Of a DNA stretch of 32,946 nt, positions 1,561 to 15,100 are shown in pieces. The stretch spans positions 1 to 32,946 of the forward strand of contig JAMOTN010000046.1 in the NCBI GenBank assembly GCA_027062325.1. The letters are read 5' to 3'. The notes under the pieces are model-generated. The model saw only the letters and a program-made list of their open reading frames with translations, was not told the DNA's origin and did no database searches. Positions within the stretch are counted from its first letter, which is position 1. Each line of letters opens with the position of its first letter. The position numbers and the translations under genes were made by a program. This stretch comes from a bacterium (GTDB taxonomy: Bacteria; JAMOTN01).

Positions 1561-1589
1561 TTGATAGTGGAGGGCTTGGTTGTTATAAT
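1561..1589 (+). promoter_or_regulatory. sigma-70-type promoter upstream of ftsQ
   Basis: TTGATA (1561-1566), 17-bp spacer, extended -10 TGtTATAAT (1581-1589). Confidence 0.75.
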
Positions 1590-2266: not shown

Positions 2267-3493
2267 ATGGAAGAGATAGTAGTGGGGCTTGATGTTGGAA
2301 CAACAAAGGTTTGTGCTTTGATTGGAGAAGTAAAAGGAGAAGTTGTAAACATACTTGGTGTTGGTGAAGCACCTTCAAAAGGTTTGAGAAAAGGTGTAAT
2401 AGTTGATTTAGATGCTACTGTGAAGTCGATAGAGCATGCCATAGTGGAAGCGGAAAAGAGTGCAGACAGAGAGATAAGTGAGGTTTACGTTGGGATTGCA
2501 AGTTCTTACATCAAGTCGTTTAATTCTCATGGAGCAATTACATTAGCTGCAGAGCCAATAGAAATAACAGTTCAGGACAGAGATAAAGTTATAGAGACTG
2601 CTAAAGGTGCTGCGTTGATGCAAAATGTTGAAGTTATTCACGTTATTCCTTGGCAATACAAAGTTGATGGGCAGTCCCAGATAAAAGATCCAGTTGGAAT
2701 GTACGGCTCAAGATTAGAAGTTGATGTTCATATAGTTACTGCTGCGGTTTCTGCCGTAAAAAATTTGATAAAAGCAGTAGATCAGGCAGGAATTGCAGTT
2801 ACTGATATAGTGTTGCAACCTATTGCTAGCGGAGAGGCAGTTTTAACTGAAGATGAAAAAGATTTTGGAGTTGCACTTATAGATATAGGTGGTGGAACGA
2901 CTGATATTTCGATATTTTATCAGGGTAGTGTTGTTTACTCGAAGGTGATTCCTCTTGGAGGTAGTCATATTACAAGCGATATAGCTATAATTTTTAGAAC
3001 GTTGATGAAAGAGGCAGAAATGATAAAGAAAAAGTATGGTTCAGTTCTTCCCAATGAAGTGCCTGAAGATGAGGAAATAGAGATGAGAATAGCAGGATCT
3101 GATGAGGTGAAGAAGGTTAAACTTAGGGAAGTGTGTGAGGTTATAAGGGAGAGAATGATAGATATATTCACCAGAGTTGATGCTTCTTTGAAAGAAAGTG
3201 GTTTCTATGATAAGTTGAATGCTACGGGGATAGTATTGACAGGGGGGACTTCGCTGTTGCGAGGAAGCGTTAGAATGGCGGAGGAATTTTTTGGAGGGCT
3301 TCCTGTTCGTATTGGAAAGCCGAGAAATTTGGGTGGTTTGGCAGAAAGAGTTGATAGTCCCATATATGCTACTGCGGTTGGATTGTTAAGATATGGGGCG
3401 AAACATATAAGTGCTGTATCTAGTACAGAAAAAGATTGGTTGGCTTACATTGTGGATAGAATAAGGGAATTTTTCAAGAGTATAAAAATATAG
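2267..3493 (+). CDS. ftsA: cell division protein FtsA
   Basis: GLDVGTTKV, GLRKGVIVD, IDIGGGTTD, VLTGGTS, YATAVGLL, C-terminal amphipathic helix. RBS GGAGGGG. Confidence 0.97.
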   Translation: MEEIVVGLDVGTTKVCALIGEVKGEVVNILGVGEAPSKGLRKGVIVDLDATVKSIEHAIVEAEKSADREISEVYVGIASSYIKSFNSHGAITLAAEPIEITVQDRDKVIETAKGAALMQNVEVIHVIPWQYKVDGQSQIKDPVGMYGSRLEVDVHIVTAAVSAVKNLIKAVDQAGIAVTDIVLQPIASGEAVLTEDEKDFGVALIDIGGGTTDISIFYQGSVVYSKVIPLGGSHITSDIAIIFRTLMKEAEMIKKKYGSVLPNEVPEDEEIEMRIAGSDEVKKVKLREVCEVIRERMIDIFTRVDASLKESGFYDKLNATGIVLTGGTSLLRGSVRMAEEFFGGLPVRIGKPRNLGGLAERVDSPIYATAVGLLRYGAKHISAVSSTEKDWLAYIVDRIREFFKSIKI

Positions 3494-3527
3494 GGTGAAA
3501 GATAAATAGAGAAGGAGGGAGAAGGGG

Positions 3528-4592
3528 ATGGACTTTTCTTATCCCTTTAAAATGGATCTACCAGATATGCCATTTGGTTACGATGAATTTAATACTCGTA
3601 TCCGCATAAAAGTGGTAGGAGTTGGAGGCGCTGGTGGAAATGCGGTAAGTCGCATGATTGAAAAGGATCTAAAAGGAGTGGAGTTCATAGCTGTGAATAC
3701 AGATGGACAAGCATTAAAAAGCTGTCCTGCTCCAGAAAAAATTACCATTGGTGCAGATTTGACCAAAGGTTTGGGAGCTGGAGCGAATGTTGAGGTTGGA
3801 AGGGAGGCTGCTTTACAGTCTTATGAGGAGATAGAAAGAGTTTTAGAAGGGGCAGATATGATATTTATCACTGCTGGAATGGGAGGCGGAACTGGGACGG
3901 GTGCATCTCCCGTTGTGGCAGAGATTGCTAAAAAACTGGGCGTTTTAACAATAGCTGTTGTTACGATGCCCTTTTCTTTTGAAGGCCGTATAAGAATGCG
4001 TCAGGCTCAAGAAGGTTTAAAGCGCCTTCAGGAAGTTGTGGATACGCTGATCATAGTTATGAACGATAGGTTGATAAACATAGTTGATAAGAATACGCCT
4101 TTTGTGGAGGCATTTCGTATAGCTGACGATGTGCTTTATCACGGAATAAGGGGTATAACAGATTTGATAACTGTTCCAATGAATGGAATAAACGTTGATT
4201 TTGCTGATCTTAAGGCTGTTATGAGCCACGGTGGTTTTGCACTTATGGGGATAGGAGAGGATTACGGTGCTGCTGCTGCGGTTAACGCTGTGAGGCGCGC
4301 AATGGAAAATCCTCTTGTAAATGCCACTGTTGATGGAGCAAAGGGCTTGATAGTAAGCTTCTTTGGTGGTTCTGAAATGGGAATACATGAGATAAATGAG
4401 GCTTCAGGTGAGGTTGTAAGAAGAATAGATCCGGATGCAGAAGTTATATTTGGTTTCCATACAGATCCAGCTCTTGGCGATAGAGTAAAGGTTATACTCA
4501 TTGCCACAGGTGTTAGGATAGGAAAGGAGTTTCCAAGTGCAGGTGGGAGCTTTTCAGGGAAAAAAGAGATGGTATTTGCAGGGGGGAAGTAG
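3528..4592 (+). CDS. ftsZ: cell division GTPase FtsZ, paralog 1 (short C-terminus)
   Basis: [22 protein letters not shown], tubulin signature [24 protein letters not shown]. Only 26 aa after the core. RBS AAGGAGG. Confidence 0.96.
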
Positions 4593-4595
4593 GGG

Positions 4596-5864
4596 ATGTT
4601 TGAATTCGAAATTCCGGTACAGGCAAAAGGTGCTGATATAAGGGTAATAGGGGTTGGAGGAGCAGGTTGCAACGCTGTTAATCGAATGATAGAAGTTGGT
4701 TTACAGGGAGTTGAATTTATAGCTGTTAATACGGATGCTCAAGCCCTTGCAAATTCAAGAGCTAAAATAAAGGTGCAGATAGGGGAAAAAGTTGCAAAGG
4801 GGCTTGGCGCTGGTGGAGATATGAATGTGGGGCGCCAAGCGGCGGAAGAAGATCGTGAAAAGCTTGAGGAGATTGTCAAGGGAGCAGATATGATATTTAT
4901 AACTGCTGGAATGGGAGGCGGAACGGGAACAGGAGCTTCCCCTGTAATAGCAGAGATAGCGAGGGACAAGGGGATATTGACTGTTGCAATAGTGACAAAA
5001 CCTTTTATGTTTGAAGGAAGAAGGAGAATGCAGCAGGCAATTGTGGGAATTCAGCAGATAAAAGATAGAGTTGATACATTGATTGTGATTCCAAATCAGA
5101 AATTACTTGAAATTTCGGATACAGAGATGTCTATTGTTGAAGCTTTTAAAAAGGCTGATGATGTCTTAAGACAAGGTGTTCAGGGGATAAGTGAGATAAT
5201 AGTTAAACCAGGAGTCATAAACGTTGACTTTGCTGATGTAAGAACAATTATGAGAGATGCAGGTAGCGCAATAATGGGAATAGGAGAAGCTACTGGAGAA
5301 AACAGAGCTGTTATGGCTGCAGAGGCTGCTATAAACAATCCTTTACTTGAGGCTGGTATTCAAGGAGCCAAGGGAATATTGGTCAACATTGTTGGGTCTT
5401 CTGCTATTACTCTTCATGAGGTATATCAGGCTTGTGAAGTTATCCAACAGGCAGCTGATGAGGATGCAAATATAATATTTGGTGCAGTTATCGACGATGA
5501 GATGAAGGATACGTTTAGGATAACTGTTATTGCAACAGGTTTTGATAAGAAAAAGAGTGATGCCATTGCTGGGGGAATGGGCACAGGAATACCATCTGGT
5601 AGGATGACAGCGAGAGATTTGCTGAAAATGATGGGGAAAACTCCAGCTTCTCAGCATTCTTCAACCCAACCTTCGCAGCCTACTCCGGTAAATTCTTCAC
5701 CGAGGGAAGAAGGAAGTATGTCACCTAGCCAGTCACCGGAGGTAGCTCAGGAGGAGAAGAAAAATATAAATTTACCTGATGATGTTTTTATAGAGACAGA
5801 GGAAGATCTTCCACCAAGGTTAAGAGGAAGAGATAAGGATTGGAATCCGTTTGGGGGAAGATAA
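4596..5864 (+). CDS. ftsZ: cell division GTPase FtsZ, paralog 2 (long linker, C-terminal peptide)
   Basis: IRVIGVGGAGCNAV, NTDAQAL, GGGTGTG, PGVINVDFAD, IATGF, S/P/Q-rich linker, EDLPPRLR resembling the D(I/V)PxFLR peptide. Confidence 0.97.
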   Translation: MFEFEIPVQAKGADIRVIGVGGAGCNAVNRMIEVGLQGVEFIAVNTDAQALANSRAKIKVQIGEKVAKGLGAGGDMNVGRQAAEEDREKLEEIVKGADMIFITAGMGGGTGTGASPVIAEIARDKGILTVAIVTKPFMFEGRRRMQQAIVGIQQIKDRVDTLIVIPNQKLLEISDTEMSIVEAFKKADDVLRQGVQGISEIIVKPGVINVDFADVRTIMRDAGSAIMGIGEATGENRAVMAAEAAINNPLLEAGIQGAKGILVNIVGSSAITLHEVYQACEVIQQAADEDANIIFGAVIDDEMKDTFRITVIATGFDKKKSDAIAGGMGTGIPSGRMTARDLLKMMGKTPASQHSSTQPSQPTPVNSSPREEGSMSPSQSPEVAQEEKKNINLPDDVFIETEEDLPPRLRGRDKDWNPFGGR

Positions 5865-5866
5865 AA

Positions 5867-6958
5867 GTGAGAAGAGTTTTGATTTGGGTTGTAGGGCTGG
5901 GCATTTTGTTTGGTTGGTTTAATGTTGTAGTTCACGCGAAAAAGATAGATTTTGATGAGTGGAGTTTTCTAAACATAAAGAGTGCGGGACGTGGTGGGTG
6001 TTATCTTACGTTTTACTCCGATAAAGATACCGCGTATTATAATCCTGCACTGCTGCACTATTATTCTTCTCACCTAGATTTTGGGGCATCTGCTCTTCTG
6101 GAGGGAAATGATGATTTGAGTGATGGTTGGGATTTGATAAATGATTTAGAGGATATATACGATGCTTATAGGGGAAGTGTGTTGCTTTCAGAAAAGATCA
6201 GAGAGAGATTAGATCAGGCTTTGCAGGATAAGCTTAGTCCTTATATCTCCTTTGGAGCAAATGGGGCAATTTTTACCAAAAAGATGCTTGCTTTAGGTGG
6301 AATGGGGCAGTTTATTGTATCGCTTGGTTTGACTGGAACATCTGTGGATCCTCATCTCAAGATCAACGCTTACAGTTCTAAAGTTTTTTACGTTTCAGTT
6401 CCTTTGAAGAGAAGAGTTTTTAATAAAAGGTTTAAGGTTGGAATAACACTTAAAAAGGTTGAGGCAGGAAGCGTTTCACTTGATTGGAATGCCAATACTG
6501 TAGCAAACAACAGTGATGACTTATTGGATTCCATAGATGATGAAATAAAAGAAGATTCGTCGGTCATGGCAGATATAGGTATAGCTTACAAAAATAGAGC
6601 TGGAATATTCATGGCGGCAGTTTTGAGAAATATAGGGAAAGTAGAGATGGCAGGAGGAAAAGAGATAGGGACTACTTTGGATATAGGAATTCGTAAGAAA
6701 GTTGGGTTGTTCACATTGGGTGTGGAGATTCACGATATAGGTACAAATTCAGATTTTTCGGACAAGCTGAAGATAGGTGTTGAGACGAGTAAAATTCCCT
6801 TTGTTGGAGTTTTGAGAGCAGGCTATAACAACAGTGGAGCAACATTTGGATTATCCACACGTCTGTTTATATTTAACTTTGATTTTGCTGTATATAAGAG
6901 AAAAATGTTTGAAGATACAGATGTGGTGTACTCGGCTAGTTTGAGTTTGAGATTTTAA
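5867..6958 (+). CDS. outer-membrane beta-barrel protein, FadL/TraF/PorV-like
   Basis: GTG at 5867 (in frame with the 5840 ORF) gives signal peptide MRRVLIWVVGLGILFGWFNVVVHA. AYYNPALL motif, alternating beta-strands, C-terminal YSASLSLRF ending in Phe. Confidence 0.65.
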   Translation: MRRVLIWVVGLGILFGWFNVVVHAKKIDFDEWSFLNIKSAGRGGCYLTFYSDKDTAYYNPALLHYYSSHLDFGASALLEGNDDLSDGWDLINDLEDIYDAYRGSVLLSEKIRERLDQALQDKLSPYISFGANGAIFTKKMLALGGMGQFIVSLGLTGTSVDPHLKINAYSSKVFYVSVPLKRRVFNKRFKVGITLKKVEAGSVSLDWNANTVANNSDDLLDSIDDEIKEDSSVMADIGIAYKNRAGIFMAAVLRNIGKVEMAGGKEIGTTLDIGIRKKVGLFTLGVEIHDIGTNSDFSDKLKIGVETSKIPFVGVLRAGYNNSGATFGLSTRLFIFNFDFAVYKRKMFEDTDVVYSASLSLRF

Positions 6959-10554: not shown

Positions 10555-12849
10555 CTACATAAAGTCTGCTAGTGATAGAGGTAAAATTTTGGCTCCTGTT
10601 GAAAGAGTAACTTGCAAAGCTACCTGTAGAAGCCTTAGTTGTGATACAACTTCTGATAGATCTGCGTCTTCTATGTCAGATATTGTCTTTTCAATGCTAA
10701 CTTTTTCATTTTGTAAAAATTCATCGTTATTTTCTAATCTTTTTTGCCATACTCCGAGTTGAGCTATCTTGTTACGGATTTTAGACATGCCGCTGTCTAA
10801 CTCTTCCAATAAGCTTCTACTTCTGAGTACTGGTTCTGATGATACTGTAGTTAATGTGTTGTTTTCGTCATCTTGTTGGGTGTATGGAGTGTCGATTATT
10901 TTTCCAAGAGAGATGGCCTCTGTATCACCTTTGATTACAGCATCTCGAATTTCTATCATTATCGAGAATAGATTTTTTGTTTTATCTTCTACTACGTCAC
11001 TTTTAACCATTCCATTTTTAGAGATATGACTGATAGGAGATGTTAAACCCAGAGCTTCAGATACAGGGTTATCCTCTACTTCTATTTTTTCGTTTGAAAA
11101 AAGAAGTAATTGTCCATCGTTTGTAACTGTAGCAAAGACTTTCTGTTTTAGTCCTTCTGTGGAATTTATCTTTTCAGCAAGGGATGTGAGGTTATCAGTT
11201 GGATCTACTATGATGTTGTAACCGTTTATATTTATCGATGCAGAAGCGGTGGGGGGAAGTATACCAATGTCGGAAAAAGTTTTACCTTTCCAGAGTTTTG
11301 TAGTGTCAAAATCTAAAGCGAGGGCTGTATTTGCTTCTGGAGCTGCAGGGTCATACTGGTTGAGTTTTCTATTGTAAACTTCGTGAATTTTTAATTTTTG
11401 AGCTATAAATGAGTCTATTTCTGCGAAGTCTTGGAGAGATAAGGAGCCATTTGGATCAGGGCTTCCATCCTTATCGCTATCTTGATAGATGAACAATTGC
11501 CCGTCTTCTAGACGAGCTACTACCGGTGCTGGAGAGGAATTTATTTTATTGATGAATTCGTTTAAGGTTTCATCACCGGTAAGCTGTATGTTAATACCGT
11601 AGAATGATAGAGTTCCACCGTTTACTCCAAGATCTCTTAGCTTTACATCTCGTAAACTAGGACCAAATGAATTGGATTTTAGTACGTTGCTGAAAAATCC
11701 AATTTTATTGAGAAGATCCCCTTCCAGCTGTTTGATAGTGAAACTACCTGTACTTTCTAGAGTTATTCTGTTGTTTTCTAATTTCCAGCTTATACCTTCT
11801 TCACTCAATTTATTTAGTAAATCTTTTAAAGTTGTGTCACGTGTGTATGAGATTATTTTATTGTTAACCATTATTTGTCCATTTTGAATAGTTGTAAATA
11901 CGTATTTTAGTGGAAGCTCTAACTGCCTTTTTGAAAATGTTTGTGAAGATGCAACTTCTGTTTTTAAATTCAAAAGAGATGCGAGATTCGAAGTATAAGT
12001 GCCGTCTATGAGTGAAATTGGTTTGTCAGAGTTTATAACTAAACGGTAGCCATTAGGTTCCACGCTCTCTATGGAAGCACTAACGAGTCTTGTTTGATTT
12101 AGCTTTTCGGCAATTTGAGAAAGAGTAGCATTTTCTGGGATTTCAACTTTTACTTGAGTATCACCCACCTTTAAGAGAATTTCTCCCTCTGTTGTGTTGA
12201 GAGGTGTGTTTTTGCTATCAAAAATTTTTGAGTATAGAGAGTTAATTGTGGAATTTTCGAAGATTTCATCTCCAGTCATTGAGGTTGGTAGCACCACATC
12301 TTGGGTAGCAAAGGCGCTTGCAGTTTTGCTACTTCCTACCCATTCTACTGATGTAATTAAGTTATCTGTTATCCCGTATTGAAGTAAATCTGGATCTTGG
12401 GATTTAACTGCTATGAATGGTTTTGTAATGTTAGAAGTTCCTGCAAAGATGTATTTGCCTTCGGATGTACTGTTGGCTATATTAACAAGTTCTTCAATTA
12501 TCTGCTCCATCTCCATTGCTATTGCTTTCCTATCATCGAGAGATAGTGTGTCATTTGCGCCTTGAATGGTGAGTTCTCTGAATCGTTTTAACAACTCATT
12601 TGCTTTTGAGAGGGAATTTTCGGCTGTAGATAACTTATTTTTAATTTGAGAGACATTTCTTATATATTGGTCGTTTGCAACCTTTTGTGAATGATAGTAT
12701 TTTGACAAGGTGTAAGAGAGGGGATCATCTGAAGGGAGGATAAACTTTTTCCCAGTTGTCATTTGCTTTTGATACATATCTTGTCTGTTTTCGATATTTT
12801 CCAAGTCTGATAGGAAACCTATGATTCTACTCTGATTTGTAAGACGCAT
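10555..12849 (-). CDS. flgL: flagellar hook-associated protein 3 (extended)
   Basis: MRLT..., TTGKKFILPSDDP, QGANDTLS, GKYIFAG, C-terminal SDIEDAD...SLADFM. Follows flgK. Confidence 0.93.
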   Translation of the reverse strand: MRLTNQSRIIGFLSDLENIENRQDMYQKQMTTGKKFILPSDDPLSYTLSKYYHSQKVANDQYIRNVSQIKNKLSTAENSLSKANELLKRFRELTIQGANDTLSLDDRKAIAMEMEQIIEELVNIANSTSEGKYIFAGTSNITKPFIAVKSQDPDLLQYGITDNLITSVEWVGSSKTASAFATQDVVLPTSMTGDEIFENSTINSLYSKIFDSKNTPLNTTEGEILLKVGDTQVKVEIPENATLSQIAEKLNQTRLVSASIESVEPNGYRLVINSDKPISLIDGTYTSNLASLLNLKTEVASSQTFSKRQLELPLKYVFTTIQNGQIMVNNKIISYTRDTTLKDLLNKLSEEGISWKLENNRITLESTGSFTIKQLEGDLLNKIGFFSNVLKSNSFGPSLRDVKLRDLGVNGGTLSFYGINIQLTGDETLNEFINKINSSPAPVVARLEDGQLFIYQDSDKDGSPDPNGSLSLQDFAEIDSFIAQKLKIHEVYNRKLNQYDPAAPEANTALALDFDTTKLWKGKTFSDIGILPPTASASININGYNIIVDPTDNLTSLAEKINSTEGLKQKVFATVTNDGQLLLFSNEKIEVEDNPVSEALGLTSPISHISKNGMVKSDVVEDKTKNLFSIMIEIRDAVIKGDTEAISLGKIIDTPYTQQDDENNTLTTVSSEPVLRSRSLLEELDSGMSKIRNKIAQLGVWQKRLENNDEFLQNEKVSIEKTISDIEDADLSEVVSQLRLLQVALQVTLSTGAKILPLSLADFM

Positions 12850-12868
12850 TTAATCCCCCCCTCTTTTA

Positions 12869-15100
12869 CTAGACAATGGCAAACAGAGCGTCTAACATGC
12901 TTTGAGTAGTGCTGATTACCTTAGTGGCTGCTACGTATGCTTTTTGATATTTGATCATGTTGGAAAGCTCTTCGTCCAAATTGACTCCACTTACAGCCTC
13001 TCGTTGCTTTTTCAAGGAGTCTAATACGTTTTTTTCTGTATCGTAACGATTTTTGTTTGCTTGGTTTTGGATTCCTATTTTTGCTTCAAAATCTCTGAAA
13101 AACTCTTCGGGTGACATGTTATTAAAGAGCTTTTTCTCTTTCAATTTTATGAGTTTTAGAACATTAGAGTTATCTCCACTGCCTTTGCTGACAAGTTTAC
13201 CCGTTTGATCAAATACTTCTTCGTCAAATCCTGCAGCAGCAATTTTGTTGTAGTCGTCGAGAATGTCTTGAGAGATTGAGACACTTTTTACCGGGTCATT
13301 CCAGTCAATTGAAAAAAAGTTTCTGCCGCTTACCCCGTATAGATCAAAACCTTGAGCATGAATTTTGTTGAATTCTTCTACAAATGTTTTCATAAAATTG
13401 TCAAGATCGTTTTTCAAATCTTCCAAAAGGCCATCTCTTACATCAATTAAGGCTTTGATTTTGCCGCTTCCTGAGAATGAGCGCCATGTTATTGTGGTGG
13501 TACCGGTTGATAGAATTTTCAATGTGGTACCATTGTAATCAACTGTATCTCCCCAAAATTCTATCTCTTCTCCATTAATGTTAACCTTACCGGGAATACC
13601 TTCTTCTATTATTGGAGGTTGGGTTTTTACTTCAGTAGCAGGAATGTTTGAAAGACCAAGTTTATAAAGTAGATCCTCACCACTATCGGATGAAACGAGG
13701 CGAATATCTACCATTTTGAGAGGATCTTTAGAAGAGATTGAAAACATGTAACCATCTTCAGTTTTAATTACTTCGGTTTCTACGTCTGGAACGTTTGAGT
13801 TTATCTCTTTCGCAATATCCTCCAACGTATCATTTACTCCAGCAGTTATTCTTATTATTCTATTGTTGATTTGAAGGACAGCGCCTACTCCAAGATGTTC
13901 TGTTGAACTGTTGATGTTAAATTTTACCTCCCCGCTGGCTCTGGAAAGTAAACCGAGTTTTTCCAAAACGTTGCTGCTTCCACCTTTTAGTTCAATACCT
14001 TCTCCTGTTTTATCTATGAGTTGAATTCTTCCCATAGGAGTGTAGACTGCTTCTACTCCTATGTTTGCATTGTTGATCTTTTTAACAAATTCACTGATAG
14101 TTGCTGTTGGTTCCACATTGAAAACCACACCATTTATAAAAAAAGTTCCGGAGGTAACGTTGTATTGAGAAAGTTGTGCAGTTGATGTAGAAAAATGCTG
14201 TAAACTGGTTATGGTCTCTTCTTTTGGAAGGTTTTCAACTTTTATGGCCATTGAAGGATTATTAACTCCTTCAACAACTGCTACTTCGGGGTTTGAGTTC
14301 CAAGAGCTTCCTTCTACTTTCACACCGTATTTACCATTACCAAAGTCGTATAATTGTACAGGTGTAACTGAGTCTTTTGAAACAATGGTATTACCCCCTA
14401 AGCTGACGATTCCATTTTCCAATCCCTCGGTATCGACAAATTTAACTCCTATGAGTTCTGAAAGTTGTTGAAAGAGACGCTCTCTTTCGTCTAGTAGATC
14501 ATTTTGAAAAGCAGTTTTTGAACTGCTTTTTAAAAGCTCTTTGTTTATTGATGCAATTTTTTGCAGTAGTAAGTTTACCTCAGCTGTGTAATCTTGAATG
14601 TGTAAATTGGCTTCATTCTGTATATCTTCGATTCTGGAATATATGTGTTTTACAGTGTTTAAGAATTGTTCTGCTTTTTCTACAACTGCTGCGCGTGTGG
14701 CTGAATCTTGAGGATTAACTGACAAATCCTGCATTGCTTTCCAAAATTCAAGCCATGAGTCCTGCATTGATGCTTGGGGATTTTCAAATATTCTTTCTAC
14801 TTTTTCAACAATATCTTGGGCAGCTTCCCAATATCCGGTATTTGCAAACTGATCTCTAAGTTGTCCGTCTAGATAACGATTGTTAACTCTTTCTATATCA
14901 ACTAAATCAACGCCAAGACCGGGGGGATTTTTAAATCCTTCTGTTGGAGTGGCTGGTCTTGTCAAAGAAAGTGCATTTAAAACTACTCTTTGGCGAGTAT
15001 AGCCTTCGACTCCTACATTGGCAATGTTATGAGATATAACTTCAAGAGCAGCTTTGGCAGCATTTAGTGCTGTTTTAGATATGCCTAGTGATTGTAACAA
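12869..15100 (-). CDS. flgK: flagellar hook-associated protein 1 (extended)
   Basis: SHNIANVGVEGYTRQRV, NDLLDERE, VSGVNLDEELSNMIKYQKAYVA. TTG start with G-rich RBS. Confidence 0.95.
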   Translation of the reverse strand: MLQSLGISKTALNAAKAALEVISHNIANVGVEGYTRQRVVLNALSLTRPATPTEGFKNPPGLGVDLVDIERVNNRYLDGQLRDQFANTGYWEAAQDIVEKVERIFENPQASMQDSWLEFWKAMQDLSVNPQDSATRAAVVEKAEQFLNTVKHIYSRIEDIQNEANLHIQDYTAEVNLLLQKIASINKELLKSSSKTAFQNDLLDERERLFQQLSELIGVKFVDTEGLENGIVSLGGNTIVSKDSVTPVQLYDFGNGKYGVKVEGSSWNSNPEVAVVEGVNNPSMAIKVENLPKEETITSLQHFSTSTAQLSQYNVTSGTFFINGVVFNVEPTATISEFVKKINNANIGVEAVYTPMGRIQLIDKTGEGIELKGGSSNVLEKLGLLSRASGEVKFNINSSTEHLGVGAVLQINNRIIRITAGVNDTLEDIAKEINSNVPDVETEVIKTEDGYMFSISSKDPLKMVDIRLVSSDSGEDLLYKLGLSNIPATEVKTQPPIIEEGIPGKVNINGEEIEFWGDTVDYNGTTLKILSTGTTTITWRSFSGSGKIKALIDVRDGLLEDLKNDLDNFMKTFVEEFNKIHAQGFDLYGVSGRNFFSIDWNDPVKSVSISQDILDDYNKIAAAGFDEEVFDQTGKLVSKGSGDNSNVLKLIKLKEKKLFNNMSPEEFFRDFEAKIGIQNQANKNRYDTEKNVLDSLKKQREAVSGVNLDEELSNMIKYQKAYVAATKVISTTQSMLDALFAIV

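Follow-up and report, generated by a model that had tools for sequence, protein, structure and literature searches.

An old tandem FtsZ pair in a bacterial dcw operon: apparent remodelling of the FtsZ1 C-terminal domain before loss of its anchor peptide

Nearly all bacteria divide with a single FtsZ. The window analysed here, the whole 32,946-nucleotide stretch of DNA, carries two, ftsZ1 and ftsZ2, in tandem inside the dcw operon. Comparison with homologues points to an old in-operon pair whose accessory member, FtsZ1, appears to have rebuilt only its C-terminal domain before it lost its anchor, the C-terminal conserved peptide (CCTP; consensus DIPxFLR). What is new is the placement of the two genes side by side within the dcw operon, together with a core that diverged prior to tail loss; the loss of the tail itself has clear precedent. 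FtsZ1 most likely rides on FtsZ2 and tunes its filaments, in the manner of the tail-less FtsZs of Agrobacterium and chloroplasts.

The tandem ftsZ locus and its tether

The genome is an assembly of 1.65 Mb in 81 contigs (84% complete, 0.2% contamination), in which exactly two Tubulin/FtsZ matches were found. Every genome compared with it (40 of 40 and, in a larger sample, 400 of 400) is related no more closely than at the level of 'same domain', and pieces identical to the locus are present in sequencing runs labelled hydrothermal vent metagenome. The window starts with the dcw cluster, in the order murB-like end, ddl, an ORF at the ftsQ position, ftsA, ftsZ1 and ftsZ2 (Table 1); the murB-like end is our own reading of the first gene fragment. 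The ftsQ-position ORF gave no Pfam or NCBIfam match and is likely a highly divergent FtsQ. The promoter-like site ahead of it is the best of 16 sites, where shuffled sequence averages 12.9, and is the probable promoter of the ftsQ-ftsA-ftsZ1-ftsZ2 unit.

The products of ftsZ1 and ftsZ2 are 49% identical. The two genes lie 3 bases apart in the same reading frame, with the junction TAG-GGG-ATG, and are presumably co-transcribed; a terminator scan found no T-tailed stem between them and one weak stem within ftsZ1. Met1 is supported as the FtsZ1 start by its Shine-Dalgarno sequence, and the overlap of the ftsZ2 ribosome-binding site with the end of ftsZ1 suggests translational coupling. Of 787 long ORFs, 5 have GGGG immediately 5' of their first ATG, ftsZ1 and ftsZ2 being two of these (positions 3506-3530 and 4574-4598); this common context may be a relic of duplication or a sign of matched translation initiation.

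Table 1. Features of the locus, with one tandem pair from another locus for comparison (positions of the last row are those of locus L156)
Feature	Position	Strand	Remarks
Sigma-70-type promoter-like site	1561..1589	+	11/12 consensus matches, extended TG; ahead of ftsQ-like gene
ftsQ-position ORF, 208 aa	1604..2230	+	N-terminal hydrophobic stretch; FtsQ identity from position only
ftsA, single copy	2267..3493	+	TIGR01174, 415 bits
FtsA C-terminal amphipathic membrane-targeting helix	3431..3490	+	hydrophobic moment 0.76; aligns with other FtsA tails
Shine-Dalgarno sequence of ftsZ1	3513..3527	+	AGGAGG, 9-base spacer ending GGGG, then ATG
ftsZ1, 354 aa	3528..4592	+	TIGR00065, 397 bits (cut-off 295)
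FtsZ1 N-terminal extension, residues 1-25	3528..3602	+	acidic (net -3), Pro/aromatic-rich, predicted disordered
FtsZ1 GTPase core, residues 26-328	3603..4511	+	mean identity to controls 60% in the ordinary N-domain and 38% in the remodelled C-domain
FtsZ1 T7 synergy loop	4179..4208	+	one-residue insertion (Met218); catalytic Asn222/Asp224/Asp227 (NxDxxD) kept
Interdomain-cleft substitutions common to FtsZ1 and P0004	4356..4496	+	S277 (Asn263), F279 (Thr265), H311 (Val297), I323 (Thr309)
FtsZ1 tail, 26 residues and TAG stop	4512..4592	+	linker-like, without CCTP
ftsZ2 ribosome-binding site	4580..4595	+	purine-rich, ends GGGG-ATG; overlaps final FtsZ1 codons and stop
ftsZ2, 422 aa	4596..5864	+	TIGR00065, 429 bits (cut-off 295)
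FtsZ2 CCTP-like motif DLPPRLR	5805..5825	+	Arg in place of consensus Phe
Tandem ftsZ pair, locus L156	4936-5916 and 3659-4552	-	

FtsZ2 is the only one of the two copies with a CCTP. The long FtsZ2 tail of about 100 aa that had been claimed is borne out: 107 residues follow the core, with DLPPRLR at residues 404-410, and this peptide is atypical in its Arg at the consensus Phe. Its core is near-canonical. FtsA keeps the invariant subdomain-2B Arg296 and has Asp at 299, where homologues have Glu (alignment of 49 FtsA). Beside this CCTP-binding Arg, FtsA residues 294-299 (3146-3163) read R-E-R-M-I-D as against E-P-R-x-E-E in homologues, and co-variation with the Arg-for-Phe exchange in the FtsZ2 peptide is possible. 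One other PF14450 match occurs in the genome besides ftsA, and by our reading of its sequence it looks like PilM. Searches for SepF, ZipA, ZapA, MinC, MinE and EzrA, all positive in known control genomes, gave no match in the 84%-complete genome. FtsZ2-FtsA is thus the only tether found, and genome incompleteness may hide another.

Other observations were made on the same genome. Directly after ftsZ2, on the same strand, lies a gene at 5867-6958 that is probably transcribed together with the division genes; its product matches TraF_2 weakly (28 bits), ends in Phe and is probably an outer-membrane barrel. FtsW/RodA has one match in the whole genome (G000:C79:2723-3790); a second SEDS gene may not exist, or may have escaped assembly. 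At 10555-15100, FlgL (764 aa) and FlgK (743 aa) are unusually long and contain large inserts.

Termini and core of FtsZ1 and its orthologue

The best non-self match of FtsZ1 is P0004 (55% over 94%) and that of FtsZ2 is P0226 (62%). Both are singletons from NCBI only, and because the longest contig for each has the same length, 252,245 bases, they probably lie on one contig in a second genome.

FtsZ1 ends 26 residues past IATG and the CCTP pattern is absent, as originally predicted. In a survey of tails, 328 of 334 homologues were parsed and 6 skipped, the set being mostly best hits, redundant and Bacillota-rich; tail length after the core had a median of 38 and a 5th percentile of 32. Tails of at most 26 residues occur in 6 of the 328, among them FtsZ1 and one other labelled partial, and the CCTP pattern was missed in 14, several of which have visible variants of the motif. 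The further claim that the linker is gone as well did not hold, as 26 linker-like residues remain: they are of linker length, predicted disordered and basic (+3), and a membrane-binding motif of the RR/KLFF type found in plastid FtsZ1 is absent from them. The truncation is not an assembly error. An identical protein is found in four sources, possibly all from one sample, and the stop is supported by a contig that spans the whole locus and may equal the source assembly. Moreover, a 164-base contig from a different study covers 4440-4603 with two substitutions (codons 340 and 341), no gaps and the TAG intact, at a depth of 2.8 that makes it weak alone. A frameshift hiding a CCTP behind FtsZ1 is excluded, as ftsZ2 begins 3 bases past the stop.

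At the other end of the protein, an N-terminal extension had been predicted and exists: 30 residues precede GxGGxG in FtsZ1 and 33 in P0004, the median being 17, and at least 30 are found in 18 of the 328 homologues. It exceeds the usual length by only about 13 residues. Length and acidity are what the extensions of FtsZ1 and P0004 have in common. Their sequences show no significant conservation, as 1214 of 2000 shuffles score as well as the FtsZ1-P0004 comparison, and the FtsZ1 extension is not amphipathic (moment 0.26). The suggestion that FtsZ1 binds partners through its N-terminus thus finds no backing in an extension that is unconserved relative to P0004, acidic and not amphipathic. The segment DLPDMPF was considered as a CCTP that had moved to the N-terminus, and this was rejected: against the FtsZ2 tail it does no better than 915 of 2000 shuffles, it has no Arg, and its Pro is helix-breaking. 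We propose that, in place of a substitute anchor, the extension forms a flexible tail under weak constraint.

Between these ends FtsZ1 has an FtsZ core, with Tubulin/FtsZ GTPase and FtsZ_C domains above curated cut-offs. Its AlphaFold model has the full FtsZ fold (pLDDT 89 overall), both ends being of low confidence and devoid of secondary structure, and superimposes on B. subtilis FtsZ (2VAM/2RHJ) with TM-scores of 0.83-0.84 by query and an rmsd of 1.3-1.5 Å. FtsZ1 keeps GGGTGTG, the equivalents of D46 and Q48 (D59 and Q61; invariant in alignments) and those of R29, F138, E139, R143, N166, D187, N208, D210 and D213; the GTP-binding and catalytic residues checked are likewise kept in P0004, whose N-domain is ordinary. 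Of these, R143, N208, D210 and D213 are described in the available text of PMC8936486 as needed for FtsZ assembly and hydrolysis. Compared with canonical FtsZ (TIGR00065; B. subtilis 2VAM/2RHJ, S. aureus 4DXD), FtsZ1 thus shares the fold, the GTP-binding and T7 catalytic residues and the dcw context, and differs in the missing CCTP, the T7 insertion, the remodelled C-domain and cleft, and the adjoining second copy.

The departures from the norm are concentrated in the C-domain. Against 54 control FtsZs, 19 of 119 conserved positions are altered in FtsZ1 and 27 in P0004, compared with 4 in FtsZ2 and 6 in P0226. Mean identity of the N-domain to controls is similar throughout (FtsZ1 60.0%, P0004 58.4%, FtsZ2 59.7%, P0226 63.4%), whereas that of the C-domain is 37.6% and 37.3% in FtsZ1 and P0004 versus 56.1% and 53.6% in FtsZ2 and P0226. 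The resulting gap between the two domains, 22.4 points in FtsZ1 and 20.9 in P0004 as opposed to 3.8 in FtsZ2 and 9.9 in P0226, exceeds in both FtsZ1 orthologues that of every control (n = 54, mean 6.5, sd 3.8, maximum 18.1). A core with a remodelled C-terminal domain thus appears to be the conserved feature of FtsZ1 orthologues.

In particular, FtsZ1 and P0004 share the one-residue insertion before NxDxxD of the T7 loop, whose Gly205 is Asn in the former and Ser in the latter. According to the part of PMC8936486 that was available, a K+ ion sits on the backbone of residues 200-209, and incoming subunits are tentatively held to add via the GTP-bound top face. The cleft substitutions in Table 1 carry S. 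aureus/B. subtilis numbers in brackets, which rest on the B. subtilis alignment. N263S, V297H and T309I lie among 11 published cleft residues; this list, taken from the available text of PMC10011733, excludes Thr265, and the same text describes the cleft as open in the polymer state. The two FtsZ1 orthologues have 12 rare residues in common, three of them in the cleft list (hypergeometric p 0.007, post hoc), and three or more rare cleft residues also occur in 6 of the 54 controls. Across all four proteins (FtsZ1, P0004, FtsZ2 and P0226), N261 is the only rare residue in common.

The same T7 insertion was met in a gut-metagenome FtsZ family, in a scan of at least 120 loci dominated by that one family. 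There FtsZ is mostly the sole match in its locus, which means that an insertion of this kind does not by itself have to alter function. Five of these loci (L127, L133, L156, L161 and L183) hold an independent tandem ftsZ'-ftsZ, with ftsA upstream in four of the five and an identical C-terminus of the extra copy; they probably represent one species, and the family is presumably Alistipes-like. In the extra, upstream FtsZ, Gly replaces the T7 Asn and the C-terminus is an amphipathic helix like that of FtsA (moment 0.69), which suggests a self-tethering, GTPase-impaired FtsZ. Other unusual forms include FtsZ behind long unrelated N-terminal regions (P0375, 863 aa, one cluster member; P0412, 757 aa, three members) and two-domain FtsZ-FtsZ proteins (P0336 and P0337), one of 840 aa annotated in Closterium with 5 cluster members and one of 826 aa in Ca. 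Altiarchaeum with 23 members from many sources. A complete 1.5-Mb genome (L020) has two distant FtsZ copies (G020:C1:482430 and 965577), and the one examined shows no clear CCTP; one tree places it with the FtsZ2 clade.

Age of the pair, order of events and known parallels

In trees of the core, FtsZ1 (P0001) and P0004 are joined with a FastTree support of 1.0 (62 rows) and an SH-aLRT of 99 (38 of those rows), and FtsZ2 (P0002) and P0226 with a FastTree support of 0.987 and, in the starred set of three, an SH-aLRT of 95. Core identity is 58% within the FtsZ1 pair, 68% within the FtsZ2 pair and 51-52% across them, values that mark the FtsZ1/FtsZ2 pair as old. The FtsZ1 and FtsZ2 clades are not sisters in free trees, and a forced single clade is not rejected (p-AU 0.24); the pair could have come from either duplication or an old transfer. 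Only one orthologous pair, P0004/P0226, was found. P0004 was not found among 400 sampled genomes, all 150 representatives obtained in a search with the C-terminal half have at most 2 of 10 residues of the FtsZ1 signature, and the 80 loci from a scan of genome contigs were generic FtsZ loci. Two FtsZ matches occur in 20 of the 400 sampled genomes; both copies are listed for 6 of them and are adjacent in none of the 6.

The tails of the second genome bear on the order of events. P0004 has a tail of 41 residues ending in DLPPVFRKN, a near-canonical CCTP, and that of P0226 ends in DVPPSMR. Absence of the tail therefore appears not to be the founding feature of the pair: an orthologous FtsZ1 with a normal tail had been named in advance as a refuting result, and the sole orthologue found carries tail and peptide alike, so by parsimony the CCTP would have been lost secondarily on the lineage to the present genome. 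The score of the FtsZ1 tail against the start of the P0004 tail is reached by 16 of 2000 shuffles, yet 4 of 324 other tails score higher, and homology between the two is only suggestive. The final codons of FtsZ1 fall within the ribosome-binding site of ftsZ2, which would fit a deletion of the distal tail followed by reading on to the next stop.

Tail-less FtsZ copies are known from other bacteria. In the available text of 10.1101/412759, Agrobacterium FtsZ1 (Atu4673), which lacks linker and C-terminal peptide (CTP), does not polymerise alone, co-polymerises with FtsZ_AT, depends on FtsZ_AT to localise and is dispensable; similar truncated second copies are cited there in Rhizobium (Sinorhizobium) meliloti and Magnetospirillum gryphiswaldense (FtsZm). 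The present FtsZ1 resembles this type in its full GTPase core, its missing CTP and its coexistence with a full-length FtsZ of a ddl-ftsQ-ftsA operon in the same genome. It differs in that the pair is tandem within the dcw operon and 3 bases apart, in that a 26-residue linker is kept where the alphaproteobacterial copies are cut right after the GTPase domain, and in having an orthologue still with a CCTP. Recruitment by co-polymerisation has been shown for Agrobacterium FtsZ1, whereas for the present protein residue conservation is what suggests it. An origin independent of the alphaproteobacterial tail-less FtsZs is assumed; the trees contain no alphaproteobacterial paralogues, and the likeness is functional only. 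Extra bacterial ftsZ copies are located outside the dcw cluster according to PMC9871819, and no description of two ftsZ genes in tandem within the dcw operon of a bacterium was found in literature that leaves subscription journals largely uncovered.

The original prediction also drew a parallel with plastid FtsZ1, which is right in so far as a tail-less, co-assembling copy has precedent; the closest precedent is bacterial (Agrobacterium FtsZ1 and FtsZm), and an architecture of this kind was already known. Chloroplast FtsZ1/FtsZ2 (FtsZB/FtsZA in red algae; PMC3494859) likewise form a two-subunit ring in which one copy is bound to the tether by a C-terminal motif. As described in the available parts of PMC12343686 and PMC11285052, the other copy secondarily lost binding to the tether, ARC6, and the cores set the differing dynamics of the two; plastid FtsZ dynamics are reported to depend on the core and not on the flanks (PMC12343686). 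The chloroplast system differs in residing in an organelle, in its ARC6 tether in place of FtsA and in its nuclear genes. Moreover, plant FtsZ1 is described as bearing the RR/KLFF tail motif (PMC11285052, as far as available) that the present FtsZ1 lacks, and the parallel is one of analogy only. No plastid or cyanobacterial name occurs among the named best hits of FtsZ1 and FtsZ2, and the trees contain no plastid rows.

Proposed role of FtsZ1 and competing explanations

On balance, FtsZ1 is probably an accessory subunit with no tether of its own, which enters filaments of FtsZ2 anchored by FtsA and modifies the turnover of these filaments. FtsZ1 would be an old, specialised paralogue produced from the same operon as FtsZ2, which would form the ring and whose CCTP would link it, via FtsA, to the membrane. 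FtsZ1 would bind GTP and enter FtsZ2 filaments by its conserved GTP-side (top) face, and its rebuilt other face, comprising the T7 loop, the C-terminal domain and the cleft that opens on polymerisation, would make the next subunit bind or hydrolyse differently, which in turn may change filament turnover or length. Carried along by co-assembly, FtsZ1 could do without a CCTP of its own, and in the present lineage the peptide was probably lost by deletion of the far end of the tail. We infer both co-polymerisation and the effect on filament dynamics from conserved and altered residues. The originally predicted division of labour, with FtsZ2 anchoring and FtsZ1 modulating, survives to the extent that FtsZ2 is the sole copy with a CCTP, FtsA the sole anchor found and co-assembly a known arrangement; the loss of the tail, being later, would not belong to the founding of the pair. 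A stricter version, unlikely as it stands, is a preferential or obligate alternating heteropolymer, a two-subunit Z-ring resembling alpha/beta-tubulin in a free-living bacterium, in which only every second subunit would be tethered by FtsA. The bottom face of FtsZ1 would then match the top face of FtsZ2, as proposed from two of the four FtsZ2 deviations, A67 and M76, around the T3 loop, and the second genome, with a CCTP on both copies, would be an intermediate stage.

The restriction of divergence to the bottom-face domain could also mean that FtsZ1 is an end-capper or brake, which adds to the growing end with an ordinary top face while its changed bottom face then blocks or slows growth and so sets filament length. 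Mutants of the bottom interface are toxic and MciZ caps via the bottom face, as reported in the available text of PMC8936486, and MinC, MinE, ZapA and EzrA are all unmatched in the incomplete genome. A pure capper would not, however, need the T7 catalytic N208/D210/D213 and the L272 equivalent, long kept in both orthologues; P0004 retains its CCTP, and two similar ribosome-binding sites suggest comparable amounts of both proteins, too much for a strict capper. We regard capping as improbable. We are equally doubtful that FtsZ1 tethers itself, to FtsA, the membrane or another protein, through its extension or its short basic tail and builds a separate or parallel structure. Both orthologues do have an acidic extension, FtsZ N-terminal tails can act as binding hooks, as in the binding of ZapA by Phe2 (PMC12216130) and the Anabaena N-peptide (PMC6175996), and plant FtsZ1 tails bind membranes weakly (PMC11285052), all according to the available parts of these sources. 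Against this stand an extension without conserved sequence or amphipathic character, a tail lacking the RR/KLFF-like motif and a genome in which ZapA and SepF are unmatched; the coexistence of extension and CCTP in P0004 means that the extension did not evolve as a substitute for the tail.

Tail loss might instead be an early step in the decay of a dispensable, relaxing duplicate. The FtsZ1 branches are longer than those of FtsZ2 (0.69+0.91 versus 0.19+0.42), 19 of 119 conserved positions have changed, and the tail-less copies of Agrobacterium, Sinorhizobium and Magnetospirillum are dispensable for division in the text available (10.1101/412759). Decay would not leave one domain spared, however, and here the frame is intact, the N-domain is conserved like that of FtsZ2 (60% in each), the catalytic residues checked are kept, and FtsZ1 has its 12 rare residues in common with an orthologue of 58% core identity, all of which makes decay quite unlikely. 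Still less probable is an old horizontal transfer, or a cytoskeletal role outside division such as that of FtsZm, with ftsZ1 placed beside ftsZ2 for co-regulation only. The unjoined clades of the free trees and the single rare residue found in all four proteins would fit it, but one clade is tolerated, ftsZ1 lies directly between ftsA and ftsZ2, both ftsZ genes have the rare GGGG-ATG start context, and no donor clade was found in 8000-candidate searches, 400 genomes and 150 representatives. Read-through of the single TAG into an FtsZ-FtsZ fusion, to which the common frame and the double-FtsZ proteins of Closterium and Ca. Altiarchaeum lend some colour, was rejected as having next to no likelihood: TAG is an ordinary stop here (306 of 1018 long ORFs use it), the tRNAs called include none with a CUA anticodon, in-frame gaps of +3 occur at 6 gene pairs in the genome, ftsZ2 has its own ribosome-binding site, and P0004 and P0226 exist as two individual proteins, both with tails.

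The two lineages would represent two stages, one with a CCTP on both copies (P0004/P0226) and one with an untethered copy (the present genome), which suggests that divergence of the polymer interface preceded loss of the anchor. This order of events agrees with reports that plastid FtsZ1 lost its tether binding secondarily. The pair may offer a compact system for the evolution of a two-subunit cytomotive filament and for the control of treadmilling by the interdomain cleft.
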